Of a stretch of DNA of 64,000 nucleotides, positions 5,614-63,960 are shown piece by piece (within the stretch, counting starts at the first letter, position 1; every line of letters begins with the position of its first letter). Source of the DNA: a virus; the IMG/VR virus record IMGVR_UViG_3300049001_000080, positions 1 through 64,000 of that record; one strand, given 5' to 3'. The position numbers and the translations under genes are program-made. Below the pieces are notes generated by a model. That model did not search any database. It saw only the letters and a list, made by a program, of their open reading frames with translations, and was not told the DNA's origin.

Positions 5614-6760
5614 CCTGCATCACCTCCAGCAGTCCCTGTGGGTCGGGGTCCTCGTCGCCGCTGCCGTCCACCAGCGCAGCCACAGAGGCCAGCGCGCGGG
5701 CCCGGATCTCCTGCACGAGGTCGGGGTGCTCCCGCAGGTGCCTGAGCAGCGCCGGCTTGCCGTGCAGCTTGGTGCCATCGGAGACGATCAGGTAGCGGCC
5801 GGCGCTGGTCTGCTCGATGAGGCCCGTCTTGTCGCCGAAGTGGGCTGCCTCGTCGACCAGCCCGACGCCGGCTGGGCCGTATGTGTCGGTCCCTCTGTTG
5901 TAGATCCAGAACAGCGCGGTCGGGCCGGCCGGCGCGCACTTGTTCTTCTCGACGCGGGCCGCGACCTCGAAGGCCACGACCTCCTCCTCGCCGTCGATCT
6001 TCATCTTGATCGGGTCGCTGCCACCGCGCCGGAGCCCGACCCGCACGCTGCCCATGTGCGACTGGGCGAACCCGCCAGGGCGGTTGGTCTTCGCGGCCCG
6101 CGGGTTGCCGCCGGCCGCGATGTTCGCGCGCTGCTGGTTGATCAATAGCGTGGTGGTGCCGTTGCGGGCTCCCATCGCGCAGACCTGCTTGACCAGCCGC
6201 GTCATGATCTTCGCGAGGAGGCCGACCGTGGCGTCGCTGGCCCCGTTGTCGATCTCGGCCTGGGGCACCATCGCACCGACCGAGTCGAGGACGACGAGGG
6301 AGCAGAAGCCGCCCTCGACCAGCATGCGGGTCGCATCGGCGACGTTCTCCGCGGAGCCGGGCTTCGACACCACGAGCAGCCGGCCCAGGTCGACACCCAG
6401 GGTGACGGCCCAGCCCGTGTCGAGGGTGCCCTCCGGGTCCACCCAGCCGGCGACCTGCTCCGGGTAGGCCCGCTGGGCGGCTGCGACCGCGAGTAGGGCG
6501 AGCGTCGTCTTGCCAGCCTGCTCCGGCCCGTGGTACTCGATCAGCCGGCCGCGATGGAGGCCGCCGGTGCGCAACGCGTAGTCCAGCGAGATAGACCCAC
6601 TGGAGATGTAGCCGTGGGTCTCGACCTTGTCGGCGTGCACGAGCGCGTCAGCGCCCATGACCTTGGCGAAGTTGGCCTCGAACGCGGCCAGCGCCTTAGG
6701 CGCGGCGCTGTGCGCCTGCCACAGCGACGTGTTGGTGGTCGGCTTCTTATCGGACGCCAC
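5594..6760 (-). CDS. recA: RecA-like recombinase
   Basis: ISSGSISLD, Walker A GPEQAGKTT, LVVLDSVGAM, LINQ.R, VEKNK. Confidence 0.95.
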   Translation of the reverse strand: MASDKKPTTNTSLWQAHSAAPKALAAFEANFAKVMGADALVHADKVETHGYISSGSISLDYALRTGGLHRGRLIEYHGPEQAGKTTLALLAVAAAQRAYPEQVAGWVDPEGTLDTGWAVTLGVDLGRLLVVSKPGSAENVADATRMLVEGGFCSLVVLDSVGAMVPQAEIDNGASDATVGLLAKIMTRLVKQVCAMGARNGTTTLLINQQRANIAAGGNPRAAKTNRPGGFAQSHMGSVRVGLRRGGSDPIKMKIDGEEEVVAFEVAARVEKNKCAPAGPTALFWIYNRGTDTYGPAGVGLVDEAAHFGDKTGLIEQTSAGRYLIVSDGTKLHGKPALLRHLREHPDLVQEIRARALASVAALVDGSGDEDPDPQGLLEVMQGADDLD

Positions 6761-6808
6761 GAGGGCTCCTTCCGGCGGGGTGTGTCAAGGCAGCTTAACG
6801 CAGCTCGG

Positions 6809-9800: not shown

Positions 9801-10543
9801 GGGTTGTGGTAGAACCCCGAGACGTGGCCCTCGGTGCTGATCGCCCACAGGTTCTTGAGGCCCTGGTCGTCCATGGCCCAGAGGCAGATGTGGTTGTAGA
9901 GCTTCTCGCCCGGCTTGGCGGGCTCCTTTACGTGGCGGTCGTGGACGAAGTAGGCCTCGATCCCGAAGCCCGGCCTGATACCCACGCGCTCGCACTGGAC
10001 GGCGAGGTCCGGGTGCCCGGTGACGAAGCCGTGGTCCGTCAGCGGCAGGAACGGCGACCCGTCCTCCGCAGCCCGGTCAGCTAGGCCGGCGACGGTCGAC
10101 AGGCCGTCGAGCGGTGAGAACTCCGAGTGCACATGGGTCGGGGCACATATGAGCAGGCCGAGCTGGGCGGCCTCCGGGCGATCAGGCTCCAGCGCGCGGA
10201 GCACGACGTCCTCGTAGGAGGGCGGCTCGCCGAGCCAGGTGGACCAGCCGCGCGGGACCAGGACGCCCTCGTCCGGGCGCTCCTCGCGGTGGGCCTCGAA
10301 GTCGGCGTCGGTGAGGACGCGGTACCGGCCTGGACCGTCCACCACGACCAGCAGGCTGGCGGAGCCCATGCTCGCCTGCGCCCAGGTGCGCAGGCGGATC
10401 GAGCCGGCCTGGTCGGGGTGCAGGAGCAGCACGCCTGCGTCGTCGACGTCCCGCGCCAGGCAGGGCGCGGGGAAGGACCGGCCGGCCACCTCGACGGTGG
10501 TCTGGTCGATCGAGAGGTCCTCGGAGTACTCGTAGCCGGGCAT
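6809..10543 (-). CDS. dnaE: DNA polymerase III alpha subunit (DnaE)
   Basis: PHP motifs HVHSEFSPLDG, LTDHG, ADSHY; GPGRGS; catalytic PDFDIDF; GVFQIE; FAQYSFNKGHS; C-terminal OB fold. Confidence 0.97.
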   Translation of the reverse strand: MPGYEYSEDLSIDQTTVEVAGRSFPAPCLARDVDDAGVLLLHPDQAGSIRLRTWAQASMGSASLLVVVDGPGRYRVLTDADFEAHREERPDEGVLVPRGWSTWLGEPPSYEDVVLRALEPDRPEAAQLGLLICAPTHVHSEFSPLDGLSTVAGLADRAAEDGSPFLPLTDHGFVTGHPDLAVQCERVGIRPGFGIEAYFVHDRHVKEPAKPGEKLYNHICLWAMDDQGLKNLWAISTEGHVSGFYHNPRIDWDVLERLGDGIMASSGCLGGPLSQAILKGRVDEARQLLGRFLAIFGDRFYIEIHVNHLPEQMDVNRQLAALARETGTPMIAAADSHYTDRSDAELHEAWMALQTGKTLGEDTGMFGGEQLYHYHTADEVAAALAYLGEDVVVEAMANTLKLAERCAAKIVKKDSYPVYSRGPVEEAVPADVARLTDLCLSNWERKVKGKRLPEQVYVDRLLYELNELYVPQQLCGFVLVTSDAVRWAKGQGCLVGPGRGSCVASLVAYLSDITDADPVEADLPVERFLTPERKDMPDFDIDFPASWRDRILGYLRDRWGDDRVLRISTHQVERVKSAVNDARRVLTPRLALRGVVPDYADFYRFTAVVDSYAAGLAGQPPKWDDLFRLYADVLDPIRKANPEIFDMAERICGRLRTYGTHPSGVVVSTDESLAYLPQRLDKDGSKVCQFDYRQLDMLGYLKYDFLTLTTLDMLQKAIDLVRERRAIEIKPADWRDEYLDGAVWDDLCRGDTTGVFQIETKAGRDVTRALKPRSVADLSVIMALNRPGPKKSKLDETYMRRRHGVEEVSYPDPRLESILGETYGVIVYQEQIMRICVVLAGYSLGEADSKVRKVLGKKLVDKVGAAGEEFVRRAVECGTDRAVADQLWAEMRTFAQYSFNKGHSWAYATLAYWSAWIKHHYPLEFITAALSILDEERVPDFVAEAKKRGFDVLPPDVNESKLGWTPVDTDGGGVIRYGLGSIKGLGPKSGPLIVAAQPFGGVEDFTARLVEPKGSKVNSGHLAVLVAVGAFDSMHPHRRALEQQLQRETTGDALRCVHKDESALGPGGLPCGFDWAHEPDPPMVTKGRGEARTSTPKPPPARCTTACRQYLKPPPLDPATVVPYTRDDIGARERALLGVSLTATPFDRVPERELAAAHKASDVEEGATGRYIVVGVVTRATVKVDRSGRDYAWVGLNAQDGELDASCWSSAWERLKRDLRTDALVVAVVVKDDRGVTITDASPI

Positions 10544-10554
10544 GACACCTCCTC

Positions 10555-10603
10555 GCCCGCGGCGCCCACTGAGGCAGGGGAGTCCTCAGTGGGCGCCGCG
10601 GGG
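10555..10603. terminator. 20-bp perfect inverted-repeat hairpin between ssb and dnaE
   Basis: gcccgcggcgcccactgagg (10555-74) / cctcagtgggcgccgcgggc (10584-603). Confidence 0.65.
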
Positions 10604-10623
10604 CTAGCGCATCGAGTCGGGTG

Positions 10624-11877
10624 TCAGCCGATGATGACGGCGGGGGCTTCGGACTCGGGCTTGCCCTTGCCCTTGGCTCCGGCCGGTGACACGCCCTTGA
10701 CCACGCGGTCGCGCACGGCCGCCAGGTCGACCTCCGCGGAGGTCGAGGTCGCCGGCTCCTCTGCGGGCGCCTGCTGCGCTGCCGGCGTGTCAGCGTCCGG
10801 CGGGCGGTGCGCCCACGGCGGCTCGTCGTCATCGGCCGGCTTGGGGTCGGGCGCGTCCATCGGCTCCACGCGGGCGCGCAGGGCCTCCAGAGCAGCGCTG
10901 GGCAGGGTGGTGTCCCCGGACGGCGCTGCCGGACCACTGGAGCCGCCTGAGGTCTCGCCCTCACCCGGCACGAAGAAGGTGTTGTAGTAGTCGTCGCTGG
11001 CCAACCGGGTCACGATCGTGCGCAGGTCCGGCAGGTCCGGCAGGTACTTCTTGACGATGCGGGGGTCGGCCAGGTCGAAGAGGATCGGCTGCACCGGCTC
11101 GCCCTCCGGGGTCTCCGGGTTGGGCACGAACTGCTTCGCCTGCTGCGGGCTGACCTTGTACTCGGTGTCGTTCATGCCGGTGCCGGACCGCGTCACCAGG
11201 AACACGGTGTCGGACAGCGACCCCCAGTCCTGGCCCATGCCCCAGAAGGTCGAGTAGAAGTTCTTCCAGGACAGGCTGCACTGCCGGATGTCGGGGACCT
11301 GCGTCGACTCGCCGGTCTCGTTGCCGTCGGCGTCGGTGCGCTTGATCTCCTTCATCTGCGGTTTGAACGACACGACGCGGCCGACCTGGTGCGCGCCGAT
11401 CTGACCGGCCGCGACCATCTCCTCGGTGCCGCGGACGGGCTCCATCACGAGCACCAGCGAGTAGGTCTGGTCGAACGGCCGGACCGACTTCCCCTTGTAC
11501 TTGCCCTCGGCCTCCTTGACGTTGGCGCAGATCCAGCAGTCGCCGAAGGCCAGCTTGAACGGCCCCTCGTTGCGGCACACCGCCGACATGTTGGGTGGCC
11601 ACTTCTTCCCGCTCTTGTAGTCCTTCGGCGCGCGCTTGGTCGGCACGAAGCTGTGGGACTTGACGGTGATCCAGGCCGTCGGCACGCCGGGGTTCGACGC
11701 CACGTCGTTGACGAACATGAAGTACGCGCTCTCCTGGTCCTCCAGCTTGAACGTCCCGAGCCGGTCGAACCCCTGCTTGCGCGCCTTGGCCGCCTGCTCG
11801 GCAGCCGCCCCGCCCATATGTCCGCCGAAGTCGATCTCGACCTCGGCCTCGGCCGTCGCGCCCTGTGTTGATGTCAT
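10624..11877 (-). CDS. ssDNA-binding protein (gp32-like) with acidic/Pro-rich tail
   Basis: H...C...CWIC Zn ligands; VTRSGTGMNDTEYKV; acidic C-terminus; next to dnaE. Confidence 0.65.
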   Translation of the reverse strand: MTSTQGATAEAEVEIDFGGHMGGAAAEQAAKARKQGFDRLGTFKLEDQESAYFMFVNDVASNPGVPTAWITVKSHSFVPTKRAPKDYKSGKKWPPNMSAVCRNEGPFKLAFGDCWICANVKEAEGKYKGKSVRPFDQTYSLVLVMEPVRGTEEMVAAGQIGAHQVGRVVSFKPQMKEIKRTDADGNETGESTQVPDIRQCSLSWKNFYSTFWGMGQDWGSLSDTVFLVTRSGTGMNDTEYKVSPQQAKQFVPNPETPEGEPVQPILFDLADPRIVKKYLPDLPDLRTIVTRLASDDYYNTFFVPGEGETSGGSSGPAAPSGDTTLPSAALEALRARVEPMDAPDPKPADDDEPPWAHRPPDADTPAAQQAPAEEPATSTSAEVDLAAVRDRVVKGVSPAGAKGKGKPESEAPAVIIG

Positions 11878-11885
11878 CGCTGCTC

Positions 11886-12896
11886 TCATCCTGTTGTCTG
11901 GTGCGCCATCGGCGCTGCGCTCGGTGTGATCACCGCGACGAGGTCGATAGCCCGCGTCGCGTCGTGCTGGTCGGGCCAGTGGTGCTCGTCGACGAGGAGG
12001 ACGTCGACCCGGCCGACCCGTGCGTGCACCCAGGGGTGCGGTGTCTCCCCCTTGATCCCGACGGCCAGTCGGGCGTGGAGCCCCCTCTCGCTGGCGGCGG
12101 AGACGAGGAGCCGCTGCCACAGGGCCAGCAGGCGCTCATCGTCGGAGTCGCTCCGCCACCGGTAGTAGCCGTAGGGGTACCTGGCGGGCGGCGGGGCCTC
12201 ATCATGATGCTCGCAAGCATCCTTGGAGTCAACGGCCTGCGGGCCGTGCAGGCGCACGTCATCTGGACCCCAGCCCATCTGCTCGCCGACCACCGACGCC
12301 AGCTCGCCGTCGGTGAGCCCGACCTGACCGTGCCGGGTCCGCAGCACCCAGCCGGCGAACATGAACTCGGAGTAGTCGGCCTGCTCCTGCGCCTGACGCT
12401 GCTCGGCCAGGTAGGTGTCCTCGAAGCGCTCGTCCGGCGGGGTCCGGTCGTACCGGCGCCGGGTCTCGGGATCCAGGAGCTGGGCCAGGACGTACGTCAG
12501 GCGGGGGGAGGACGGGCCGTCGAGGGCCAGGTAGGCGCGCCGCAGCTCGTCCTTGCCGGCGCGCCAGCCCACCCCCAGCTCGCGGTAGTAGCCCTCGACG
12601 TCCCAGGACCACGGCGGTTCGTAGTGGCCGAGGGGCACGAGGTCGGTGCAGGTGCTGAACAGCACCGGGCCGTCGCCCACCCGCCAGGGGCGCTCAGGGT
12701 CGCGGCTGCTCTCGATCGCACCGCGGGTCGGGCTGGCCGTCACGACGCGGCTCTCCCGCGTCCTCGGCGTCTCGATCGTCGCCCCGCCGGTCGTCTGGGT
12801 CCGGCTGGTCGGGCAGGACCTGGCCGGTACCGTGCTTGACGATCGCCACGTCTCCTCCTCGGGTCGCTGATCACGGGCAGTGTCCATCGTGGACAC
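11886..12896 (-). CDS. J-domain (DnaJ-like) protein; start uncertain
   Basis: YYRELGV...DELRRAY...LLDPETRRRYD; no HPD motif. Confidence 0.6.
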   Translation of the reverse strand: MSTMDTARDQRPEEETWRSSSTVPARSCPTSRTQTTGGATIETPRTRESRVVTASPTRGAIESSRDPERPWRVGDGPVLFSTCTDLVPLGHYEPPWSWDVEGYYRELGVGWRAGKDELRRAYLALDGPSSPRLTYVLAQLLDPETRRRYDRTPPDERFEDTYLAEQRQAQEQADYSEFMFAGWVLRTRHGQVGLTDGELASVVGEQMGWGPDDVRLHGPQAVDSKDACEHHDEAPPPARYPYGYYRWRSDSDDERLLALWQRLLVSAASERGLHARLAVGIKGETPHPWVHARVGRVDVLLVDEHHWPDQHDATRAIDLVAVITPSAAPMAHQTTG

Positions 12897-13971
12897 TCTT
12901 GCAGAACCAGCAGCTCAGCGCCTTCGGTGGCTGCCAGAGGCAGGCCGGCACGGCGCCCGCGTACAGCTCCGCGACCGTCAGGTCGTCCATGTCGCCTGGG
13001 TCGGCCGCCCAGGGGCTGTCGACCACCCAGACGTCGGTGTAGGGAGTCAGGCGGTCGATCAGCCCGGGCCTGCGCTGGCGGCCCTCCTGGGCGCCCTGGA
13101 CCGCCTTCCAGCCGGCGTCGTCGTTGTCCATCCACAGCACGACCCGCTTGTGCTCGGCGATCAGACGGACCTGGGCGTCGGTCACCTCGCTGCCGAAGGT
13201 CGCCTCGATGGGCAGGTGGTGCGTGTGCCGCAGCACGCTCATCGGCGACTCGACCACCACGGCGATCCGACGCGCGGGGTCGTAGTTGTAGATCGTGCGC
13301 CCGGCCGGGAACTCGCCGGTGCTGAGGTACTTGGGGCTGCCGTCGTCGTAGAGCCGGCGGGACTGCCAGCCCACCAGGTCGCCGCGCCAGAAGTGCGGGA
13401 AGACGACGCGCTCCCCCGTCCGGCCCTGGTCGTCGAGGGGGAACCGCTCGGCGTACCCCACCCGCAGCGCCCGCACGTTCTCCCTCGGCACACCGCGACC
13501 CTTGGGCACGGCGTCGACGGGGTCGGTGAGGTAGGGGTGGATGAGCATCCACGGCGCGATGGCCCGCTCGCTCATCCTCGGGATCGGCGTCAGCCCGCGG
13601 CGGGGCGCGGCCTCCATCGCGTCGATGATGGACAGCAGCGTGCCGGCGTCCCAGTCCGGCCCTGTACAGGACTTCTGCTTCAGCCACTCCCGGGCCGCCG
13701 GCCCCGGGATGCCGCGGCACGCGGCGATGAACCAGAGCAGACCACCATAACTATTACAACTAAGACAATTGTAGACAAGCTTCTTATAATTTAGGGAGGC
13801 GGACGGTCGGCTCTCGTCATGCCAGGGCAGCACGCAACAGTGCTCCAGCTCACCCTTCTCGTGCCTGACCCTGATCCGCGTAGCGCCGAACTCGGCCAGC
13901 AGCCCGCGGCACATCTCCTCCTTGACCGCGTCCGGCAGGAGCGCGGTCTCGAAGATCGAGGTCTCGGTCAT
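12871..13971 (-). CDS. DNA primase (Zn-finger + TOPRIM)
   Basis: C..PWHDE..PS......YNCLSC; VVFP; KYL; VVVESPMS; WMDNDDAG. Confidence 0.9.
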   Translation of the reverse strand: MTETSIFETALLPDAVKEEMCRGLLAEFGATRIRVRHEKGELEHCCVLPWHDESRPSASLNYKKLVYNCLSCNSYGGLLWFIAACRGIPGPAAREWLKQKSCTGPDWDAGTLLSIIDAMEAAPRRGLTPIPRMSERAIAPWMLIHPYLTDPVDAVPKGRGVPRENVRALRVGYAERFPLDDQGRTGERVVFPHFWRGDLVGWQSRRLYDDGSPKYLSTGEFPAGRTIYNYDPARRIAVVVESPMSVLRHTHHLPIEATFGSEVTDAQVRLIAEHKRVVLWMDNDDAGWKAVQGAQEGRQRRPGLIDRLTPYTDVWVVDSPWAADPGDMDDLTVAELYAGAVPACLWQPPKALSCWFCKSVHDGHCP

Positions 13972-14297
13972 GACGCCCGCACCCTGGCGCCGTCGTCGTC
14001 CAGCCGACGGCGCGACCCGTCGCGCCACGAGCCGTTCCGCTCGCCCGTGGGGGCCCCGCCGCGGCTCGGCTGGTAGCTAGCGCGCCAGGAGAGCACCTCG
14101 TCGGGGTCGAACAGCCAGGTCGTCTGCCCGCCGACCTCGACTCGCACGCCGCCTGGGAAGCCGTTCGTGGCCCTGCGGCTCAGCCAGGCGTCGGCCTGCC
14201 TGCGGGTGACGCCCAGGAGGGCGGCCACGCTGGAGGTGCCGCGCAGGTAGCGCTCGCCGAGCACCTCGACGTACCTGACGACCTCGGGCGGCCTCAC
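13968..14297 (-). CDS. HTH DNA-binding protein (excisionase/AlpA-like)
   Basis: GTSSVAALLGVTRRQADAW...FP...LFDPDEVLSW. Confidence 0.7.
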   Translation of the reverse strand: MRPPEVVRYVEVLGERYLRGTSSVAALLGVTRRQADAWLSRRATNGFPGGVRVEVGGQTTWLFDPDEVLSWRASYQPSRGGAPTGERNGSWRDGSRRRLDDDGARVRAS

Positions 14298-15601
14298 GCC
14301 GGGGCCACCGAGCAGCGCACGGACATCTTGCCGACGTCGATGTGTCGGTTCAGCTCCCAGGCCGCCCCAGGGGGGACGCGACGACCAGCGACCTGCTCGA
14401 ACGTGCACAGGTTGTTGGCCTGCTGCATCCGGTTGGCGTGCAGCGCGAAGGCGAAGGAGCAGGTCCGCTCCACGCCGGAGCCCTCGGCGGCGTGCCGGGC
14501 CTTCGCGTGGCCGTGCTTCTCGATGTACTCCTCGCCCTCGCGGTTCACCTGGTGGATCAGGAGGCAGGGCAGCAGGTGCCGGCCGGTGGAGACGAGGACA
14601 GCCAGCTCCTTGATCGTCCGCCAGATCTCGTCCGGCTTGGTGCCCGCCTTGCGCTCCGTGGTGGGCGACATGAAGGTGAGCTGGTCCAGGATGATCGAGT
14701 CGGCGCCGTAGGCCCTGGCCTGCTGGACGAGCTGGGCCGGCGTCCGCATGTCCTCGTCGGGGTGGAAGATGTGCAGCGGCACGTCGCTCGCGTCGAGCAC
14801 GTCGTGCACCCACGTCTTGAGCTTGTCGTAGTCCTCGGCGTCGAGCTTGCCGTCCTGTAGCTCCTGGATCGAGAGGCCCAGCGCGACGCAGGCGAGCCGG
14901 AGCTGGGTCATCTCGATGCTGTTCTCCATCGTGTAGAGCGCCACCACGCGCCCGCGCTCCCACTCCCTTACCGCCACGAAGTCCGCGAACCATGACTTCC
15001 CTTGCTTCGGAGGAGCCATCACGACAGCGACCTCGCCGTCCCAGACGCCGCGCGTGTGGGCGTCGACCTCCGGCAGGCCGAAGGTCAGGCCGCGGATCGG
15101 GTTGCCGGAGGCGGCCACCCGGTCGTACTCGGCGAGCATGTCCAGGGCGCCGGTGCGCAGGTCGACCGCCGTAGTCCCCGGCTCCAGCTTGGTCGAGATC
15201 ATCGCCAGCTCGGCCGAGTGCGCGGCGATGACCTGACGCCGCTCCTCGGGGGCGCACTCGGCGATCCCGTGCACGAGGCTCCGGGTGAAGCGGGACACCT
15301 CGGAGCGGCCGAAGTCGGCGCGCAGCTCCTCGACCGCCGACTCCATCGTCTCCTCGGGCGGGTGGTGGACGTCGACCTCATGGTCGGACAGGACGTGCCG
15401 GTCGGTCTCCCACCGCCGCACGATCACGTCGGCGGTGGGCGCCCGGTTGCCCTGGCGCAGGTAGCCCAGCGCCCACTGGACGACGGGCCTCAGCCCGGGG
15501 CTGGGCAGCAGCTCCAGCTCCAGCCCCTCGCGGGCCAGGCTCTTAAGGCTCTCGGTGTCGGTGAGCAGGCCGACCACGACCCGCTCGGCCGCAGTGCTCA
15601 C
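14294..15601 (-). CDS. DnaB-like replicative helicase
   Basis: Walker A APPKQGKS, YTMEN, IILDQL, IHQVNREG. Confidence 0.9.
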   Translation of the reverse strand: MSTAAERVVVGLLTDTESLKSLAREGLELELLPSPGLRPVVQWALGYLRQGNRAPTADVIVRRWETDRHVLSDHEVDVHHPPEETMESAVEELRADFGRSEVSRFTRSLVHGIAECAPEERRQVIAAHSAELAMISTKLEPGTTAVDLRTGALDMLAEYDRVAASGNPIRGLTFGLPEVDAHTRGVWDGEVAVVMAPPKQGKSWFADFVAVREWERGRVVALYTMENSIEMTQLRLACVALGLSIQELQDGKLDAEDYDKLKTWVHDVLDASDVPLHIFHPDEDMRTPAQLVQQARAYGADSIILDQLTFMSPTTERKAGTKPDEIWRTIKELAVLVSTGRHLLPCLLIHQVNREGEEYIEKHGHAKARHAAEGSGVERTCSFAFALHANRMQQANNLCTFEQVAGRRVPPGAAWELNRHIDVGKMSVRCSVAPA

Positions 15602-16437
15602 TCGATCACCACGGGGCGCACCAGCCGGAGGTCCCGCTCCTTGAGGCGGCGCAGCCGGACCTCCTCGCGGCGGTCGGGGCCGGAGAACTCCACCAGCTCG
15701 GAGCACTCGTACAGGACCGACATGGTGTGGCCGCCGTACCCCGTCCGGATCTCCTCGGGCGTGAGGTTGGTGGTCAGGATCGTCGGCATGCTCTGCTGCA
15801 CCCGGTGCCGGATGACCTCCTCCAGGGTGGAGTCGGCGATGCTCCTGACCCCCTTGTGCTCGCGGCCCAGGTCGTCGATCAGCAGCACCCCGGCGTTGCG
15901 CACGCGTCGCACGAACCAGGCCCGCTCCGCCTTGTCGGTCCAGCCGCCGGAGAACGAGGAGAGCAGGCTCGCGAAGGTGGTCGAGTACCCGTCGAACCCG
16001 GAGGACACGAGCCGCTTGAGCAGCAGCTCGGCGAACATCGTCTTTCCCGTCCCGCGGCCCTCGCCGTGCAGGATCAGCCCGAGGCCGGAGTCGATGTACT
16101 CGGCGGCGCTCGCGGTGTACCGCTCGGCGAGGTCGAGGTGGGCGACGTTGACGCTGAACTGGTCGACCCAGCTCAGGCGCTGGTAGGCCAGCCCGATGCC
16201 CGAGTAGAGGAAGCGCAGGTGCAGGTACCCCTGGTTGCCCGGCGGGCACTCGTACTCGCCCACCTGCTCCCGCTGGGTCATCGGCGCGTACCAGCGGAAG
16301 GAGCCGGTGCCCCGGCAGGTCACGCAGTGGTCGTGGTCGACGGCCAGCCCGGGGTAGCGACTCTCCAGCTCGTCGAGCTGCTCGTCGGGCAGCGAGAGGA
16401 CGGTGCTGGGAACGGGCGGTAGCTGGAGGAGCGGCAT
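15598..16437 (-). CDS. DnaC/IstB-like helicase loader ATPase
   Basis: GRGTGKT, LLIDDLGRE, PTILTTNL, FSGPDRR. Confidence 0.9.
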   Translation of the reverse strand: MPLLQLPPVPSTVLSLPDEQLDELESRYPGLAVDHDHCVTCRGTGSFRWYAPMTQREQVGEYECPPGNQGYLHLRFLYSGIGLAYQRLSWVDQFSVNVAHLDLAERYTASAAEYIDSGLGLILHGEGRGTGKTMFAELLLKRLVSSGFDGYSTTFASLLSSFSGGWTDKAERAWFVRRVRNAGVLLIDDLGREHKGVRSIADSTLEEVIRHRVQQSMPTILTTNLTPEEIRTGYGGHTMSVLYECSELVEFSGPDRREEVRLRRLKERDLRLVRPVVIE

Positions 16438-16482
16438 GCGCGTCGACCTCTCTGGCGGTGTGCTGGCGGTGGCGGTGACGAG

Positions 16483-16908
16483 CTAGCGGCGGAGGCGCTC
16501 CGCGATGGGGCCGGCGAAGTCGACGTCAGCGGCCCTACAGAACCTGGTGATCCCCACGGCGCCGGCCCAGTGGCCGTCCTGCGGAGGCGCGAACGCGAAG
16601 CGGGCGATGGGCACCGCCAGCTCGCCCCACTGGCGCAGGAACCGCTTGAATATCGCGGCCTCCCGGGCCGGGTCGCGGCCCTGGATCGGCCCGCGGCGGG
16701 CCTCGACCTCTGCCACCACGTAGTCGCGCAGGTCGCTCCAGGTCCACTGGTCCTGCGGGCGGGCCAGGTAGGAGGCGGCCGTGGACATCGGCGCGCGGCG
16801 GGGGGTGACGGTGACCCGCTGGACGACGCGAGGCACCTCGGTCGTGATCACCAGGCGGACGACCCCGGATGCATCCCGGGCCGTCGTCACCGACTCAGCG
16901 CTCGACAC
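16483..16908 (-). CDS. Hypothetical protein
   Basis: ORF in the operon, GC3 bias. Confidence 0.6.
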   Translation of the reverse strand: MSSAESVTTARDASGVVRLVITTEVPRVVQRVTVTPRRAPMSTAASYLARPQDQWTWSDLRDYVVAEVEARRGPIQGRDPAREAAIFKRFLRQWGELAVPIARFAFAPPQDGHWAGAVGITRFCRAADVDFAGPIAERLRR

Positions 16909-17203
16909 CGACGACCTCCTCCTCGACGCGGCCGAACTGGTCGCGGAGCACGCTCTGGCGGAACGCCGCCACCACCGGCTCCACCCGGGCGCGGACGCCC
17001 TCCGGCTCGGCCTCTAGGTCGCCGTCGTGGCCGATCACGACGGTGCTCGACTTGTGCACCAGGCAGACCTGGCCGTCCGGCCGGACGAGGGCCCAGTGGT
17101 AGCTGTCGGACCCGCAGACGTAGCCGGCGACCTCGTGCCCGGCCACCAGCGCGGTCACCCTACGGCCCTCGCGGACCGCCCACCCGATCTGACGGTCGGA
17201 CAT
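16895..17203 (-). CDS. Hypothetical protein (small beta-rich, Sm/SH3-like?)
   Basis: ATG at 17203 after AAGG; beta-strand pattern. Confidence 0.55.
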   Translation of the reverse strand: MSDRQIGWAVREGRRVTALVAGHEVAGYVCGSDSYHWALVRPDGQVCLVHKSSTVVIGHDGDLEAEPEGVRARVEPVVAAFRQSVLRDQFGRVEEEVVGVER

Positions 17204-17442
17204 CCTTGACCCGGCGTGGGGGACCTGCCTTCGAGCACCTGACACGCTGACGCGCCCCCTCACGAAGGAGAGGCCCCGGCACAGCTCGGGCCGGCTGAGT
17301 CGAGCCGGGGCCGGCGGTACGGGGGGCACCACAGAGCTGCCGGTGGAGCTGAGACGTCCTAGCGTGGCGGTCCCGTACCTGCTCCCCGGACCGTAGCACG
17401 ACGAGCCGCTGACCAGCAGTTTCCCGTCGAGGGTGGTCGCCC

Positions 17443-18333
17443 TCATAGCCACGATCCTGCCCGGTCGCCCCACAGCGTCCCCCGCGCGAGGTGCTCCTCG
17501 ATCCGACGCAGCTCGTACCGGCGCAGGAAGCTCACGAGGTGCGGGTAGAGGGCGTCGCCCGGGGCCGTCAGGCGGGTCGGGGGCGGCGTGACGTGCAGCA
17601 GGGTGGACTCCGCCCGCAGGTCCACCAGGCGCAGGCTCAGCTCCACCAGGGCGCGCTCCGCGGCCTCCAGCCCACCCAGCACCTCGGGCCAGCTCCAGCC
17701 GGCGGCCTGGAGCATCTTGGCGGCCCGCTTCGGCCCTACCCCGCGCAGCCCCGGCACCGAGTCGCCGGGGTCGCCCTGGAGGGCCATCGCCATGGCGAGG
17801 TGCTCGGGGCGACAGCCGAGGGCCGTGTACACCCGGGCCTCGTCCCAGCGCTCGGTCGCGTTGCGCCCGGTGCCCACCTTGACCTGCGTGGTGCCCGGAT
17901 CGACGAGCTGGAGCAGGTCGTGGTCGCCAGACACGATGACCACGCGCCCATCATGGGCGCGGACGGCCCGCCAGTACGAGGCGATCAGGTCGTCGGCCTC
18001 CCAGCCGGGCACCTCCGTGTGGAGGATGCCGGAGAGGGTGAGGAACTCCTTGGCCATCGCGAAGGGCGAGTGCTCGCCGTGCTCGCGGCGTCGCTCGCGG
18101 TCCTCCTTGTAGCGGGCGTAGAGGGCGGTCCGGAACTCCGACCGGCCCCCGTCCCAGCAGACCACCACGGACGCCGGCTGCTCCTCGCGGACGTGCCGCG
18201 CGACGCTGTTGATGAACGTCATCACGGCGCCGGTGGGCGCCCCGTCACCGACGAGCCCGGCGTGCTCCATCCCCTTGACCGCCCGCATGAGCACGTTGTT
18301 TCCGTCGATGAGCAGCGTGGGTCCATCGGCCAT
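17443..18333 (-). CDS. 5'-3' exonuclease / flap endonuclease (PolI N-terminal-like)
   Basis: LLIDGNN, WDGG, YK..R, EADDLI, SGDHDLLQL, GDPGDSVPG..GVGPK.A. Confidence 0.93.
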   Translation of the reverse strand: MADGPTLLIDGNNVLMRAVKGMEHAGLVGDGAPTGAVMTFINSVARHVREEQPASVVVCWDGGRSEFRTALYARYKEDRERRREHGEHSPFAMAKEFLTLSGILHTEVPGWEADDLIASYWRAVRAHDGRVVIVSGDHDLLQLVDPGTTQVKVGTGRNATERWDEARVYTALGCRPEHLAMAMALQGDPGDSVPGLRGVGPKRAAKMLQAAGWSWPEVLGGLEAAERALVELSLRLVDLRAESTLLHVTPPPTRLTAPGDALYPHLVSFLRRYELRRIEEHLARGTLWGDRAGSWL

Positions 18334-18339
18334 TTCTAC

Positions 18340-18774
18340 CTAGCTCCACATCTCTGAGTACGGCTCACGGGACCGCAGGGCGGCCAGGGTGTACGGGACC
18401 ATGCCGGATGCGGGGAGCAGCAGGAGGGGGAACCAGCGGAGACCATCACACTTCTCGGGCTCGCGGTTGACCGGCTCACCCGTCCACCGAGTGGCCTCGA
18501 AGAACAGAGCCACCCGACTGCCGTCGTCGGTTTTGTGGTGCATGGTATGCACGAGCCGAGGCTCGTGCACGATGATCCCCAGCTCCTCGTGAGCCTCGCG
18601 AACCAGGGTGTGGCTCGCCATCTCGCCGGCCTCTAGGTGCCCGCTGGGCAGGTGCCAGAGCCCAGCCCCGAACGGCAGGTCGCGGGCTCGCAGCCCGAGG
18701 AGCACGGCGCCGTCGCGGCGGAGGACGAGGTGGACGCCCACGACGACCCGGTGCCTCGTGGCGACGGTGCTCAC
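18340..18774 (-). CDS. Nudix hydrolase
   Basis: Nudix box GHLEAGE......REAHEELG; NREPEKC. Confidence 0.9.
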   Translation of the reverse strand: MSTVATRHRVVVGVHLVLRRDGAVLLGLRARDLPFGAGLWHLPSGHLEAGEMASHTLVREAHEELGIIVHEPRLVHTMHHKTDDGSRVALFFEATRWTGEPVNREPEKCDGLRWFPLLLLPASGMVPYTLAALRSREPYSEMWS

Positions 18775-19160
18775 TGAGGGGCCTCGATCTCGGGGATGTC
18801 CAGGTCCTCGTCGGGGGACGGAGGCACCTCGTAGTTGGCGGCGCAGGCGTAGACGACGGCGAGGCAGCGAGCCGCCCGCTGGCCGTCTATCTTGCCCCGG
18901 TCGAGGAGGGCGTAGATCATCCGCTCGACGTCGGCGAAGTGGTAGACCCGGGCCTTGTTCCGCCGGGCCGGCACCTCGCCGAACAGACCGGCCCTCTCGC
19001 GCCAGCGGACCCAGTAGACCTTTCGGGCGAAGAAGACCGTGGCTACCTGGCCGATCTTCCACTCCGGCCCGAAGTCCGGTCGCCCGGCAAAGCGCATCCG
19101 GTCGGGGTCGACGCCCTCGGGGGTCACCACGACGGTCGGGAACGGGTCCCCGGTGGCCAC
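18771..19160 (-). CDS. MerR-like HTH DNA-binding protein
   Basis: WKIGQVA...WVRWRERAGL...R....RVYHFADVERM. Confidence 0.65.
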   Translation of the reverse strand: MATGDPFPTVVVTPEGVDPDRMRFAGRPDFGPEWKIGQVATVFFARKVYWVRWRERAGLFGEVPARRNKARVYHFADVERMIYALLDRGKIDGQRAARCLAVVYACAANYEVPPSPDEDLDIPEIEAPQ

Positions 19161-19167
19161 GACCCTC

Positions 19168-19944
19168 CTACCGGAGGTAGATGGAGGTCGTCGGCGCGGG
19201 GGCGACGACGGCGTGCTCCTGGAGGCGGGCCAGCAGGGACGGGTCCTTGCGCACGGCCTCGGACGCCTTGGCCTTGTCGAAGACGCGGGCGACCACGGGC
19301 AGCGAGGTGAGCGCGAGGTACTCGGCGCGGTCGAAGACGCCGGCCTCATGCGCGGCCAGCAGCCGCGCCGAGTCGACACGCGGCTCGCCCGAGCTGGTAG
19401 TACGCGCCCACCGCTTGCCGCTCTCGGGGTCGACGTGCTCGGTCTTGTCGAGGTAGTGGCCGTCCTTGTCCCGCAGGCTCGCCTTCGCGACCAGCACGCG
19501 CTCGCCGTCGACCTCCTGGTAGACGTCCTCGGGCGTGACGCGGCCGGTCCGCTCGGCGAGGTGGTCCAGGTGGTGCGCGGCGACCTCGCGGACGCCCACC
19601 TCCTTGCGCTCCTTGACCAGCTTGGCCACGAGGTCGAGGACCAGCCGCTCGGCGACCAGCTTGGCGACCTCGTCGTCCGACAGCTCGCGCGAGGTCGCGG
19701 GGGCGACGCGGCCGTAGACGGTGGGGAGCGCCACCAGGGCGGCACGCTGGGCGTCAGTGAGCGGCTTGACCGGCGGCGGGGCGGCCTCGGCCGGCGCCAC
19801 CGAGGAGGACGGCAGGCCGGAGTCGATCAGGTCCTGGAGCATCTGCTCGAAGGTCCGGCCGTCGCGCGCCACGGCGCTCTTGGCCCGGCTGAGCAGGTCC
19901 TGGATGGCGGGGTCCCGGCGTGCGACCTCGTTGCTGGCGGTCAT
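19168..19944 (-). CDS. Hypothetical phage protein
   Basis: ATG with GAGG upstream; GC3 bias. Confidence 0.65.
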   Translation of the reverse strand: MTASNEVARRDPAIQDLLSRAKSAVARDGRTFEQMLQDLIDSGLPSSSVAPAEAAPPPVKPLTDAQRAALVALPTVYGRVAPATSRELSDDEVAKLVAERLVLDLVAKLVKERKEVGVREVAAHHLDHLAERTGRVTPEDVYQEVDGERVLVAKASLRDKDGHYLDKTEHVDPESGKRWARTTSSGEPRVDSARLLAAHEAGVFDRAEYLALTSLPVVARVFDKAKASEAVRKDPSLLARLQEHAVVAPAPTTSIYLR

Positions 19945-19990
19945 GAGGACTACCTCTCGTCGTTCGTACTGGCTCCTGGCTGGGGCGTCG

Positions 19991-20022
19991 GTAGTGTATA
20001 GAATCCTTAGCACTACACGCAA
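19991..20022 (-). promoter_or_regulatory. Putative promoter/operator of the replication operon
   Basis: Minus strand TTGCGT-N16-TATACA; inverted repeat GTAGTG...CACTAC; AT-rich intergenic. Confidence 0.5.
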
Positions 20023-20024
20023 GA

Positions 20025-20072
20025 CACCGCCCCGGCGCCGGAGGCTGGTCCGGGGGTCGCGCCGGGGCGGTG
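20025..20072. terminator. Hairpin after holin
   Basis: 14-bp IR caccgccccggcgc / gcgccggggcggtg. Confidence 0.55.
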
Positions 20073-20084
20073 CCGCTCGATGGG

Positions 20085-20471
20085 TCAGGCGGCGGCGCGG
20101 TGGGCCACCGGCCGGGAGGTGCCGACTCCGACGTCCGCCGTGCGCCGCTCGATCGCCAGCACGGCGGTGTAGCGCAGGGCGCCGAAGTACGCGACCACGT
20201 CGGCCACCAGGGCGTTGATGAAGGCGTTGACGAAGCCGGCCAGGTCGTAGCCGCCGGTGTCGCGGGCCAGGTAGACGATCGAGGCACCGAGGGCGAGGGC
20301 CACGAGGTTGGTGGCGACCTTGACCCAGGGCTCGGCGTAGCGCTTGGTGACCAGGGCGACCAGCAGGGGCACCAGCGCACCCACGAGGTGGACGAGCTGG
20401 AGCGGCTGGAGGGCCACGACCCCCGACTGGAGCGGCTGGAGGACCATAACCCCCGAGCTGAGCACGTACAT
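20085..20471 (-). CDS. Holin-like membrane protein
   Basis: Three TM segments (VGALVPLLVALVTK...); preceded by the late-promoter motif. Confidence 0.65.
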   Translation of the reverse strand: MYVLSSGVMVLQPLQSGVVALQPLQLVHLVGALVPLLVALVTKRYAEPWVKVATNLVALALGASIVYLARDTGGYDLAGFVNAFINALVADVVAYFGALRYTAVLAIERRTADVGVGTSRPVAHRAAA

Positions 20472-20610
20472 CAGGACTCCTCTCCCCCGACCCCGCCGGG
20501 CGCGGGCTCGGACGACCTCGGCGGTCGGCGCGGGGTGGCGGGCGCAGCACAGAGCGAGGCCCCGCGCCTCACCCCTTAGGGCGGCGACGCGGGGCCTCGG
20601 GCAGGTGGGC

Positions 20611-22683
20611 TCAGATGCCGGCCAGGTACTCCAGCGCGGCATCGCGGTCGACCCGGGTCATGGACGGCATGTCCCGGATGAGCTGGTGCCGGTAGCCCTT
20701 CTTGGCCATCCGGGAGTCGAGGATCGCGACCAGCCCCCGGTCCTGCTTGGACCTGATGAGGCGCCCGGTCCACTGCTGGAGCGTCAGCGACGCGATCGGC
20801 AGGCTGTACTTCCCGAACGAGGCACCGTCGCCGTGGTCGCGGTCGATCCGCTCGCACCGGGCCTCGACCAGCGGCTCCTTGGGCATGGGGAACGCCAGCT
20901 TGGTGACGACCAGCAGGGACAGCGCCTCGCCCTGCACGTCGAACCCGGTGCCGAACGAATTGCTGCCCAGGAGCACTGAGTCCGCCTCGGCCTTGAACCG
21001 GTCGCCCAGGACCTTGTTCTCCAGGTCGCCCTGGACGAGCAGCGGCTGGGTGATGGTGCGCCGGAGGACGGTGGCGGCCCGCTGCATCTGCTTGAGGTTG
21101 GAGAACAGCACGAGCGCGCGCCCGCGCGAGGCACGCACGAGATCCTCGATCTCGGCCACGACGGCGGCCTCCCACTCCTCAGCCTCCGGCCACAAGCTGC
21201 CGTCCCGCCTGGTGCCGCCACCCGGCGGCAGCGGCAGGTCACCGGCGATGTAGAGCCGGCTCTGCGTCGCGTAGTCGAACGGGGTGCCGACGTCGAGGGA
21301 TCGGTGCTCATCGATCCCGAGGCGCCCGGTCACGTAGTCGAACCGCCCGCCCGTCGCGAGCGTCGCGCTGACCAGCGCGACCGGCGTCCTGGCGAACAGG
21401 TGCTGGGCCAGGAAGGGCGCCAGCGAGACGGGGCACGTGTTGATCACCTTGACCTTGCCGCTCCGTGCCGGCTCCGTGCTCACCCAGCGGACCAGGTCCG
21501 GGTCCTCCAGGAACAGTGCCTCGTAGCGCTTGGTCGTGCTGACGACCCGGCCGCTGAGGTACCCGTGCCGGTTCTTGGCCCGGTAGTAGTCCTCGGTCGC
21601 CACCGTCTCCAAGGTCGTGGTGCGCCAGGCCGCGTGGAGCTGCCGGAGGGCCGCGGAGAGCTTCGAGATCATGTCGAGGTTCTCCTCCAGCGTGGCCAGC
21701 CGGACGCGGCCGACCGGGAGGCCGAGTCCGTCGGGGTGGCCACGGGTGGGGGTTGCGTCGAACAGCTCGGCGGCGGCGGCGGTCACCAGGCCGCCGGCCC
21801 GCTCCACGGCCTCGACCACGTCCTCGTCGTCCTGGTAGCGCCGCACCCACGAGCGGGTCTCGTTGGCCAGGGACCGGAAGGTGCCCTCCCGGAGCTGGGT
21901 ACCGATCGTCTCGCCCGCGATCTTCTCGAACTCGTGCGCCTCGTCCAGGACGATCAAGTCGTACGCCCCGAGCATGCCCGCGAAGCGGGCGCCAGCCTCG
22001 GCACGGATCGAGAGGTCGGTGCACAGCAGGGCGTGGTTCACCACGACGATGCTGGAGGCCAGCGCCTTGCGCCGGGCGCGCTCGGCGTAGCACGAGTCGT
22101 CACCGCTGGCGGCCCGCGACTTGCAGCCGGACTCCCGGCACGCGTCGGCCTCCGAGCAGATGCGCGACCACTCGGAGCCCGAGACGTGGATCGGCAGGTC
22201 CTCGCGGGAGCCGTCCCAGTCGGGGTTCTCCTTGGCGTAGGCCAGGATCGACGGGAGGACCAGCGGGACGTCCGAGCCGGCCACCGCCTGCGTGAGGCAC
22301 AGGTACGCGGCCCTGCCCTTGAGCACGGACCAGGTGAACGGGACGCCGAGGTTCTCCTCCAGGAACGGCAGGTCCTTGTTGGAGAGCTGGCCCTGCAAGT
22401 TCTTCGTGGTGACGCTGATGATCACGCGCTTGCCGGACAGCACGGCGGGGATGGCGTACCCCAGCGCCTTACCGGTGCCGGTACCGGCCTGCCCCAGCAG
22501 GTGGGTCGGCGGCCCCTGCTCCGGGTCGTCGGGGTCGAACTCGGCGTGGTCGGCGATGAACCGCTCGATCGCCTCGGCGAGGACGGCCTGCTCGGCGCGC
22601 TCCTCGTAGCCAGGCAGCGTCTCGGCGAGGCGCCGCTGGGCGTCCGCGAAGGTCCGTATGGTCGTCGTGGCCTCAGTAGACAA
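20611..22683 (-). CDS. DinG/XPD-family helicase
   Basis: QAGTGTGK, LKGR..YLC plus Fe-S Cys, VVVNHALL, DEAH, SATL, LF, Q..GRLIR...DRG...ILDSR. Confidence 0.93.
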   Translation of the reverse strand: MSTEATTTIRTFADAQRRLAETLPGYEERAEQAVLAEAIERFIADHAEFDPDDPEQGPPTHLLGQAGTGTGKALGYAIPAVLSGKRVIISVTTKNLQGQLSNKDLPFLEENLGVPFTWSVLKGRAAYLCLTQAVAGSDVPLVLPSILAYAKENPDWDGSREDLPIHVSGSEWSRICSEADACRESGCKSRAASGDDSCYAERARRKALASSIVVVNHALLCTDLSIRAEAGARFAGMLGAYDLIVLDEAHEFEKIAGETIGTQLREGTFRSLANETRSWVRRYQDDEDVVEAVERAGGLVTAAAAELFDATPTRGHPDGLGLPVGRVRLATLEENLDMISKLSAALRQLHAAWRTTTLETVATEDYYRAKNRHGYLSGRVVSTTKRYEALFLEDPDLVRWVSTEPARSGKVKVINTCPVSLAPFLAQHLFARTPVALVSATLATGGRFDYVTGRLGIDEHRSLDVGTPFDYATQSRLYIAGDLPLPPGGGTRRDGSLWPEAEEWEAAVVAEIEDLVRASRGRALVLFSNLKQMQRAATVLRRTITQPLLVQGDLENKVLGDRFKAEADSVLLGSNSFGTGFDVQGEALSLLVVTKLAFPMPKEPLVEARCERIDRDHGDGASFGKYSLPIASLTLQQWTGRLIRSKQDRGLVAILDSRMAKKGYRHQLIRDMPSMTRVDRDAALEYLAGI

Positions 22684-24783: not shown

Positions 24784-24824
24784 GAGCAGGGCCGTACCGG
24801 GTGGGTGACGGTACGGCCCTGCTC
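24784..24824. terminator. Bidirectional terminator between convergent genes
   Basis: 15-bp perfect IR gagcagggccgtacc / ggtacggccctgctc. Confidence 0.7.
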
Positions 24825-31361: not shown

Positions 31362-32537
31362 TCATCTGGCTAGCTGCGGGCGAGCCAGCTCGACTAGGAC
31401 CTGCTGGCTGAGCAGCGCCAGCTCCACGATGACCTCGTCCACGCGGGCAGGTGGCGCGGCGACCTGGGTGGGCACGGCCTCGCGGGGCGCCTCCTGGGCC
31501 CAGCACTCGGCCAGCAGCGCGGCCATCTGCTCGGCGTTGGCCTTGCGGGCCGCCTGCATGCGCTCGAACCACTCGTGGAGCTGCCGCCGGCCGCGGGACG
31601 GGTCGTGCTCCGCCGCCCAGGCCAGGAAGCCCCTGCGCTCGAACTTGAGCCGGGGGTCCCGGAAGTCCCTGACCTCGCGGGCGACGCGGCGCTCGCGGTC
31701 CTGAGCACGGTCCCGGCCGGCGACGAGGGACGGCTCCAGGATCTGCCCCATCAGCCGCAGGACGCCCCTGCCACGAACGGCCAGGCCGGCGCGCTCCATC
31801 CGCTCGGCCAGCCGGCGGGCGGTGGCCTCCGACACGCACAGCAGCTCGCGGACCACCGAGAGCGGGACGTCCAGGAAGTCGTCGTCGGGCAGCTCGCCGA
31901 GGTGGCCGGCCAGGGCCAGGGCCGCCAGCGCCCACCCGTCGGTCCCCACGCACCTCAGGTCGTCGCGCCTGCCCTGGGGCTCCGACCAGACGTCCAGCGA
32001 GGGGTCCAGCACCTGCAAGTCCTCACCGCTCAGAGGTGCCCCAGTAGCATCTTCGCCCCGCTTTTCGCAAGCTTGACCAGGGAGTTCTCTCGCCTCCCCG
32101 CCCTGACAAGTGCTAGAACCCCTACTAGTTAAGATCATCTTGTTAGGCCTAGGAGAGGTACTAGAGGGGGAGATGATCTTCGTCGAGCGGCTGAGAACGT
32201 AAGAGCTACTAGAGGTAGTAGATGTTCTACTGGGGCACCTCTGAGCGGTCGTCGTTATAGACCACTTTGTGAGCCTTGGATCGTCGACGTCGACGCCCTG
32301 GGTGCCCTGCTGGTCGCAGCTCAGCAGGCCTGTGACCTCGCCCGTGGTCCACGGGGCCCAGCGCTGGACGGTGCGCTCGTGCAGGCCGCTGGCCACGGCC
32401 AGGTCGCGCTTGCCCTGGAGGGTGGGGTCGAGGGCGACCGCGGCGGCGATCCTGGCCTGGACGCGCTGCTCCGAGTTCGAGCCAGCGGAGAGGGTCGCGA
32501 TTATGGACCCGAGGGGTGCGCCTACGTTATCCTGCAT
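31362..32537 (-). CDS. Putative replication initiator-like HTH protein
   Basis: N-terminal HTH (RDLAVASGLHERTVQR), Ser/Thr linker encoded by an IR cassette, second wHTH (ELLCVSEATARRLAERMERAGL). Confidence 0.5.
   Translation of the reverse strand: MQDNVGAPLGSIIATLSAGSNSEQRVQARIAAAVALDPTLQGKRDLAVASGLHERTVQRWAPWTTGEVTGLLSCDQQGTQGVDVDDPRLTKWSITTTAQRCPSRTSTTSSSSYVLSRSTKIISPSSTSPRPNKMILTSRGSSTCQGGEARELPGQACEKRGEDATGAPLSGEDLQVLDPSLDVWSEPQGRRDDLRCVGTDGWALAALALAGHLGELPDDDFLDVPLSVVRELLCVSEATARRLAERMERAGLAVRGRGVLRLMGQILEPSLVAGRDRAQDRERRVAREVRDFRDPRLKFERRGFLAWAAEHDPSRGRRQLHEWFERMQAARKANAEQMAALLAECWAQEAPREAVPTQVAAPPARVDEVIVELALLSQQVLVELARPQLAR
32025..32249. repeat. 225-bp cassette with 23-bp perfect terminal IRs, an inner 10-bp IR and TACTAG repeats (candidate ori)
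   Basis: accgctcagaggtgccccagtag 32025-47 / reverse complement 32227-49; aagatcatct 32131-40 / agatgatctt 32171-80. Confidence 0.85.
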
Positions 32538-32591: not shown

Positions 32592-32670
32592 TTCATCTTG
32601 CCTGGCGGACGTCAGGCTACCCCACGGGTCGCGATCTTCGGAAGGGCCGCGCAGGGATGCTTGACAGGCC

Positions 32671-63919: not shown

Positions 63920-63960
63920 GACCGAGCTGCCTCGCGTGGGGATCGCGAGGCAGCTCGGTC
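63920..63960 (-). terminator. Intrinsic terminator
   Basis: 17-bp IR gaccgagctgcctcgcg / cgcgaggcagctcggtc followed by TGTCTTTCT on the minus strand. Confidence 0.75.

Follow-up and report, generated by a model that had tools for sequence, protein, structure and literature searches.

The DNA analysed here (the window) comprises the first 64 kb (64,000 nucleotides, nt) of the IMG/VR virus record IMGVR_UViG_3300049001_000080, a record of 102,445 base pairs (bp) with a guanine-plus-cytosine (GC) content of 72% and an estimated completeness of about 70% (CheckV). Within the minus-strand gene P0001 (31362..32537, 391 residues), which is the sole long open reading frame (ORF) spanning this region, a 225-bp cassette is bounded by a long inverted repeat and is translated in frame. 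This element is very probably a selected, functional nucleic-acid signal of some kind. The reading that we favour, at a probability of roughly 40%, is that the cassette is a replication origin or initiator site embedded in the linker-coding DNA of an uncharacterised protein family.

In our proposal, the element represents a conserved DNA palindrome that acts in cis and can form a hairpin or cruciform, within DNA that encodes a predicted disordered and probably dispensable linker, and it would most likely be the site of action of the gene's own two-domain DNA-binding protein. Gene and palindrome would then form a self-contained module of origin plus binding protein, of the lambda O/ori or pSK41 Rep/ori type. 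The protein would bind the arms and/or short repeats in the interior, and the GC-poor interior would be the easily melted region in the two large phages, i.e. that of the window and that of locus L005.

The inverted repeat and its cassette

The arms, ACCGCTCAGAGGTGCCCCAGTAG at 32025-32047 and its exact reverse complement at 32227-32249, are complementary at 23 of 23 positions and lie 179 nt apart. Measured between the outer arm ends, the cassette corresponds to codons 97-171 of P0001, i.e. exactly 75 codons starting on a codon boundary. The two arms are the sole matches to this sequence in the window when up to 3 mismatches are allowed (0 of 100 shuffles gave any). No perfect inverted repeat of the whole record is longer than the one they form, and the next-best arm-like sequence there has 7 mismatches. 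Repeat, length and reading frame had been described in a first-pass annotation of this stretch and could be confirmed, as could the CATCT/AGATG extension of the arms behind a 2-nt bulge, a nested 10-bp repeat and three TACTAG words. The reported drop in GC was also found: the cassette has a GC content of about 52-55%, compared to about 75% in the flanks, and holds the lowest 200-bp window of the record, while third-position GC falls from 0.93-1.00 to 0.43-0.73 over approximately 32020-32290. Serine and threonine together make up 33% of the encoded residues. When read in inverted orientation, the cassette contains one TAA, at codon 36, in agreement with the 35 open codons claimed previously. 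The features of the gene and the cassette are as follows.

31362..32537, minus strand: gene P0001, encoding an N-terminal helix-turn-helix (HTH)/winged-helix domain, a predicted disordered linker, and a C-terminal winged helix with long helices (ORF translation, third-position GC, AlphaFold model, fold matches)
32250..32537, minus strand: DNA for the N-terminal domain, residues 1-96 (weak HTH_23 match; modelled helices and strands; conserved in P0002-P0004 and P0008-P0014)
32227..32249, no strand: gene-proximal arm, encoding TAQRCPS (arm search; residues invariant in the four full-length close homologues; pairs codon against codon with the other arm)
32048..32226, no strand: low-GC interior of 179 nt, translated as a Ser/Thr-rich, predicted disordered linker (GC minimum; lost codon bias; variable, with in-frame insertions and deletions in homologues)
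32131-40 / 32171-80, no strand: nested 10-bp inverted repeat AAGATCATCT / AGATGATCTT with the word AAGATCAT (word also in the hairpin interior of L005 and L027, and as GAAGATCT in L006)
32123, 32159 and 32207, plus strand: three TACTAG words in the same orientation (3 of the 5 TACTAG words of the whole record)
32142-65 / 32199-222, plus strand: imperfect 24-nt direct repeat, 75% identical (repeat comparison)
32025..32047, no strand: gene-distal arm, encoding TGAPLSG (arm search; recurrence of TGAxxSG; core TGCCCCAG/CTGGGGCA common to L005)
31362..32018, minus strand: DNA for the C-terminal domain from a possible internal start (TTG 32018, GTG 32012), directly past the distal arm (database gene call P0006 of the contig; putative start)

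The cassette also contains a TTA leucine codon at 32127-32129 (minus strand, Leu of NKMIL), which is replaced by a phenylalanine codon in P0002 and P0004, and many A/T-ending codons (AGT, AGA, ACA, TCT, ACT) that are very rare in this 72% GC genome. Such codons could slow or gate translation of the full-length protein.

Conservation in close homologues

Three full-length homologues from Logan assemblies (P0002-P0004) share 75-88% identity with P0001 and have kept the cassette, with all insertions and deletions in frame. The arm peptides TAQRCPS and TGAPLSG are invariant among P0001-P0004, and the interior is variable. Arm conservation in P0002-P0005 and P0008-P0013 was assessed at the peptide level only. 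Alignments of both close and distant homologues contain no full-length member without the cassette linker. The comparison with homologues that the first-pass annotation had proposed, on the expectation that a functionless repeat would be absent from close relatives, thus found the repeat conserved.

Conservation and covariation in distant homologues

An exhaustive HMMER search identified relatives at 31-54% identity with the same two-domain layout and a variable linker of 30-70 residues at the position of the cassette. The peptide of the distal arm recurs as TGAPPSG, TGAITSG and TGVVRSG (TGAxxSG) in proteins that are about 30-36% identical, which argues that at least this arm derives from ancestral coding sequence and does not mark an insertion end. 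Scans of viral, genome and metagenome collections with A1, A2, A4 and P0012 returned only the loci L004, L005-L007 and L026-L031, of which L004 lacks the cassette. In distant relatives, at about 25-35% protein identity, a long inverted repeat is found at the homologous position, just upstream of a conserved LDPSLDxW motif:

L005 (another large phage): arms of 38 nt, 97% complementary, spacer of 66 nt
L006 (a Streptomyces locus): arms of 26 nt, 88% complementary, spacer of 78 nt
L007 (identical to L026, Streptomyces cyaneofuscatus): arms of 56 nt, 73% complementary, spacer of 1 nt
L027 (S. tibetensis): arms of 26 nt, 92% complementary, spacer of 80 nt

The arm sequences differ from lineage to lineage, and the spacers between the arms, including that of the window, are 1, 66, 78, 80 and 179 nt long. 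Since the spacing varies this freely, a dimer site of fixed geometry is disfavoured; the variation argues instead for intrastrand pairing, or for a symmetry that would act independently of distance.

The arms of the window and of L005 could be anchored on shared Cys-Pro and Gly-Ala codons (core TGCCCCAG/CTGGGGCA). Among their 23 common paired positions, 14 are identical, 9 differ in a compensatory manner and none is broken. Similarly, the Streptomyces alignment A3 contains a 28-pair helix that is 88% paired and in which 9 of the 28 pairs have changed on both sides; none of 500 shuffles reached 9 such double changes, and sliding the partner by 1-3 columns gave at most 2. Any two aligned inverted repeats will differ 'compensatorily', and these counts should be read to mean that the repeat was kept at homologous codons while its sequence turned over. 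As the repeat has persisted through this turnover, complementarity itself appears to be what selection has preserved.

In L006 (5810-5823 and 5914-5927) and L007 (5795-5808 and 5890-5903) each arm is itself a small palindrome, GCGGT-N4-ACCGC, the kind of site that a dimeric HTH protein would bind. This internal symmetry has been lost in the arms of L027. When L007 and L027 were compared in sliding windows, the hairpin did not stand out in DNA identity or in synonymous-site identity. A search for hidden repeats from protein sequence alone, as antiparallel codon-complementary peptides, had low power, as 9 of 100 shuffles matched or beat the true P0001 repeat.

Domains and predicted structure of the P0001 protein

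Pfam searches of P0001 gave only sub-threshold matches to HTH_23 (residues 26-61) and HTH_29 (residues 231-253), and PHROGs gave none. For all 16 members of A2, i.e. P0001 and 15 relatives, only sub-threshold generic HTH or MarR matches were obtained from these two databases. The 'Rep-like' label that had been given to this gene is therefore not supported. No RepA_N (PF06970) or other initiator signature was found in P0001 or the 15 relatives by Pfam, PHROGs or a profile search against PDB sequences, and no Rep_trans or other rolling-circle Rep domain was found in P0001 by Pfam. Isolated phages and plasmids gave no tblastn match to P0001, P0014 or the L007 protein. Atlas clusters carrying HTH_36 score 0.86, which is a lead only.

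In an AlphaFold model derived from the family alignment, two parts are folded, residues 7-94 and residues 198-349, the latter consisting of a domain at 198-263 followed by long helices to 349. Residues 97-181 between them have a predicted local distance difference test score (pLDDT) of about 30. The cassette thus would encode a disordered linker that joins two domains of DNA-binding type, consistent with the Ser/Thr linker between two HTH domains described by the first-pass annotation, and in the model the putative cis site lies in the DNA for this flexible linker between the DNA-binding and C-terminal domains. Both fold searches returned generic MarR/ArsR/CRP winged helices only (best Z 7.3); on the basis of such generic matches an initiator fold could be neither claimed nor excluded.

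Repeats and base composition of the hairpin interior

Direct repeats are present in the interior of several hairpins: L005 has two copies of 21 bp that are 95% identical, and L006 and L027 have repeats with a 20-nt period at 75-78% identity. Such spacing corresponds to roughly two turns of the helix. An A/T-rich word, GAAGATCA/AAGATCAT, is common to the interiors of the window (on both strands), L005 (twice) and L027, and occurs as GAAGATCT in L006. It is found nowhere else in those genes, its codon frame differs between lineages, and GAAGATCA is counted 7 times in the 102-kb record; the sharing of this word across lineages is suggestive only. The 133-bp intergenic spacer upstream of P0001 contains a near copy, CGAAGATCG at 32631-32641 (agreeing with GAAGATCA at 7 of 8 positions), which may be due to chance, as GAAGATC is found 25 times in the record. 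The hairpin coincides with the GC minimum of both the window's record and the 12.8 kb of L005.

A proposed origin within linker-coding DNA

Of the three options offered by the first-pass annotation, an origin with palindromic initiator sites is the one that best fits the conserved, covarying palindrome, the GC minimum, the direct repeats and the position in the linker; such an origin is putative, and P0001 has no detectable relationship to any known initiator. We infer that the P0001 protein binds the palindrome, and that this binding would start replication as opposed to controlling the gene's own expression. Further observations are in favour of an origin. First, the phage encodes DnaB, a DnaC/IstB-like loader, primase and Pol III alpha, yet no origin-binding protein is annotated in its replication module, although a pair of helicase and loader requires one. 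Secondly, an unrelated N-domain goes together with unrelated arms, as seen in L006 and L007. Finally, the layout and proportions of P0001 match the design of a linker-embedded origin as in pSK41 Rep.

Several points weigh against this reading. No sequence, profile or fold link from P0001 to any known initiator was found, including in the profile search against PDB sequences, and a transcription factor would be just as compatible with its MarR-like fold. About 15 kb separate the gene from the replication module. Cumulative GC skew, a check proposed at the outset, stays level as far as about 36 kb before rising; it does not turn sharply at 32 kb and was uninformative as to the cassette. Origins of the lambda and RepA_N types rely on iterons, and long perfect hairpin arms are atypical of them; here only two or three copies of the direct repeats occur, and those of the window are weak. 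The Streptomyces prophage versions (L006, L007 and L027) are not GC-poor at the hairpin. Lastly, the comparison at the nucleotide level covers only five loci in three lineages.

A further claim, that the P0001 family is an unrecognised class of phage origin-binding proteins from high-GC actinophages and Streptomyces prophages, whose origin would be a cruciform-forming palindrome with a few internal iterons, translated into the linker of the binding protein itself, is put forward only tentatively.

Alternative explanations

Among the alternatives, we regard each of the following two as unlikely. According to the first, the palindrome and the interior repeats are operators or a roadblock for the gene's own protein or another regulator, serving autoregulation or isoform control; the target of control would be transcription across the gene, or else an internal promoter or start giving rise to a short, C-domain-only isoform. 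The MarR/ArsR/CRP-type winged-helix matches are typical of transcription factors, and in close homologues a start-capable codon (TTG/ATG/GTN) lies right past the distal arm. In P0001 this possible start, TTG 32018 or GTG 32012 (32010-32018, minus strand), is preceded by GGTGAGGA and adjoins the distal arm; the corresponding position is L/L/M/V in the close homologues, and P0007 begins with MEILDPSLD. The contig's database gene call, P0006 (218 residues), begins past the cassette at TTG 32018, and these codons may be used as a translation start. A Streptomyces locus (L028:2700-3140, Streptomyces sp.) apparently lacks the N-terminal domain and retains the second arm only: a TGA and a low-GC, intergenic-looking stretch are followed by a frame whose start lies within what remains of that arm, which suggests a C-domain-only or decayed variant. 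As a truncated variant, L028 was excluded from the pair counts. In the Streptomyces phage phiC31, the repressor gene produces in-frame shorter isoforms and has inverted-repeat operators inside the gene. Against such a regulatory role, no sigma-70-type promoter was found in or near the cassette by a promoter scan, L005 and the Streptomyces loci do not share the possible internal start, and arms of 23-38 bp with free spacing do not resemble ordinary operators. The phage also contains no further copies of the arm, contrary to what a regulon would predict.

According to the second alternative, the functional element would be a hairpin in the sense-strand mRNA, acting as an RNase III target or as a translation brake that sets the amount of full-length protein or separates the expression of the two domains. 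Transcripts of the gene necessarily include the element, its predicted RNA fold is stable (-105.5 kcal/mol, z = -4.6), covariation around a loop of free length is what an RNA stem classically shows, and a few sense-strand T.G pairs occur at helix ends. However, G.T pairs on the sense strand are not preferred over A.C along the palindrome axes (27 versus 28), folding is no less favourable for the antisense strands than for the sense strands, at similar energies, and mismatches within the arms are mostly of non-wobble types. Because of these three observations, a sense-RNA structure is without positive support and the signal appears to act at the DNA level. In addition, the direct repeats with a 20-21-bp period have no obvious role in an RNA stem-loop, no Rfam family matched at E <= 1, and cleavage within an ORF without a stop codon would destroy both halves of the message.

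It is very unlikely that the cassette is a relic of a palindromic mobile element, either a miniature inverted-repeat transposable element (MITE) or an in-frame insertion resembling the Rickettsia palindromic elements, that landed in a tolerant linker and is now functionless. Terminal inverted repeats, a foreign-looking composition and lost codon bias would fit such a relic, and linkers tolerate insertions. However, the cassette is single-copy in the 102-kb record, and no viral contig matched the arm. In about 185,000 genomes, the 18 exact matches to the arm 19-mer CTCAGAGGTGCCCCAGTAG (L008-L025) all fall in one unrelated conserved host gene from many phyla, whose complement reads ..YWGTSEW.. 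(presumably an aldo-keto-reductase-like gene), without a partner arm; they were rejected as a repeat family and represent coincidental sequence. The flanks CAAGTCCTC and CGTCGTTAT share no target-site duplication, no empty site is seen in homologues, as linker and arm motifs are present in every full-length one, and the arm peptide TGAxxSG is ancestral to the family. Moreover, complementarity of the arms has survived 9 + 9 double changes, an outcome incompatible with neutral decay. The suggestion of a domesticated MITE is therefore not supported.

We also see very little chance for an intragenic inverton, in which a recombinase flips the 225-bp segment and the TAA at cassette codon 36 truncates the protein after the N-domain. 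A perfect inverted repeat does flank a short intragenic segment, the inverted frame has one stop, and a 'premature stop' class of intragenic invertons is known (PMC10028968). Resolvase (PF00239) and Phage_integrase (PF00589) domains are, however, absent from the 102 kb of this record, which is about 70% complete. The close homologues and all three Streptomyces loci are colinear, with the interior in the same orientation, and the protein database contains no short N-terminal products, nor any N-domain-only protein among its shorter entries. The 1-nt spacer of L007 leaves nothing to invert, and the core site of a recombinase would not need covariation over the whole arm. The invertible ON/OFF switch suggested by the first-pass annotation is thus disfavoured, in the same way as the MITE: the element is single-copy, without target duplication, and neither a recombinase in the 102 kb nor a flipped relative was found. 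A retron-like reading was dropped, as there is no reverse transcriptase in the 102 kb.

Genomic context

The genes upstream of P0001 resemble beta-helix and pectate-lyase tail-fibre genes. Downstream are a gene with a PAPS-reductase domain and Thg1, followed by a replication module; the PAPS-reductase and the primase were confirmed by Pfam. This gene neighbourhood shows the record to be that of a phage. The full replication and recombination module occupies 5594-22683 of the window, on the minus strand, and includes:

5594-6760, minus strand: RecA
6809-10543, minus strand: Pol III alpha with PHP domain
12871-14028, minus strand: DnaG-type primase
~14519-15091 onward, minus strand: DnaB helicase
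15598-16437, minus strand: IstB/DnaC-like loader
17443-18333, minus strand: 5'-3' exonuclease
20611-22683, minus strand: DinG-like helicase

Perfect stems of 16-19 bp with loops of 7-9 nt are found at gene ends elsewhere in the window (10556-10602, 24784-24824 and 63920-63960). These are terminator-like, without long T tails.

Comparison with known systems

The closest parallel in layout is the Rep protein of plasmid pSK41, a RepA_N-type initiator, in which the N-terminal 120 residues bind Rep boxes located centrally in the rep gene, and residues 121-199, encoded by the ori DNA, act purely as a linker and tolerate in-frame deletion (PMC5703833). P0001 shares the three-part organization at nearly the same size, i.e. 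an N-terminal winged helix, a central segment of about 75-80 residues and a C-terminal helical domain. In both, the DNA of the central segment would be the cis site and its peptide a linker, so that the site is inherited together with the protein that would recognise it. Unlike pSK41 Rep, P0001 and its 15 relatives have no RepA_N signature. Four direct Rep boxes make up the pSK41 origin, in contrast to the long covarying inverted repeat that dominates over two or three weak direct repeats here. Furthermore, pSK41 is a firmicute plasmid, while the P0001 system belongs to high-GC actinophages and prophages, with replication as its putative function.

A second parallel is lambda O, with ori-lambda inside gene O; P22 gene 18 and SPP1 gene 38 with oriL are comparable cases. 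As in lambda O/ori, the P0001 cis site would lie in the DNA of the interdomain linker, with a meltable region near the binding sites, and the module would move as a unit. P0001 has no homology to Phage_rep_O or to replisome organisers, in contrast to lambda O, and instead of four 19-bp iterons and an AT tract there is a pair of 23-38-bp arms. This phage also differs from lambda in encoding a DnaB, a loader, a primase and a Pol III alpha of its own.

In pT181 a cruciform-forming origin lies inside repC (PMC5703833). The likeness to P0001 consists of an origin within the initiator coding region, a dispensable peptide and a cruciform-capable palindrome as the working feature, here by analogy. RepC, however, belongs to the Rep_trans nicking enzymes and has a catalytic tyrosine; no such domain was found in P0001, and there is no sign of rolling-circle replication.

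Intragenic invertons (PMC10028968) resemble the cassette in having a pair of inverted repeats that is wholly intragenic and a flipped state that would give a premature stop. They differ in that here no invertase and no second orientation were found, the arms are adjacent in one relative, and covariation extends over the whole arm. Rickettsia palindromic elements and MITEs are palindromic segments of about 100-230 bp that are translated in frame at a tolerant position, are multicopy, and are patchily distributed among orthologues. The cassette is likewise a hairpin-capable segment translated in frame within a protein; unlike those elements it is single-copy, occupies one position in all relatives and appears to have been selected for complementarity.

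Implications

To our knowledge, the replication origins of actinophages and the proteins that bind them are mostly uncharacterised, and the P0001 family itself is unannotated in Pfam, in PHROGs and in the records of isolated phages and plasmids. Should the palindrome prove to be an origin, it would provide a compact, portable module of origin plus binding protein for Streptomyces-type hosts, as well as a handle for annotating a dark gene family. If true, this would be a protein family unrelated at any detectable level to lambda O, RepA_N, DnaD and the other known initiators, and would represent an independent invention of the design in which the origin lies inside the initiator's linker, with hairpin arms taking the place of an iteron array. 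Genes of this kind are also prone to being split by gene callers, as in the contig's own call, which begins only after the cassette. Whatever its function, a single stretch of DNA is here under two constraints, since it has to encode a translatable disordered linker and has to keep complementary ends; the paired peptides TAQRCPS and TGAPLSG therefore co-evolve codon against codon.

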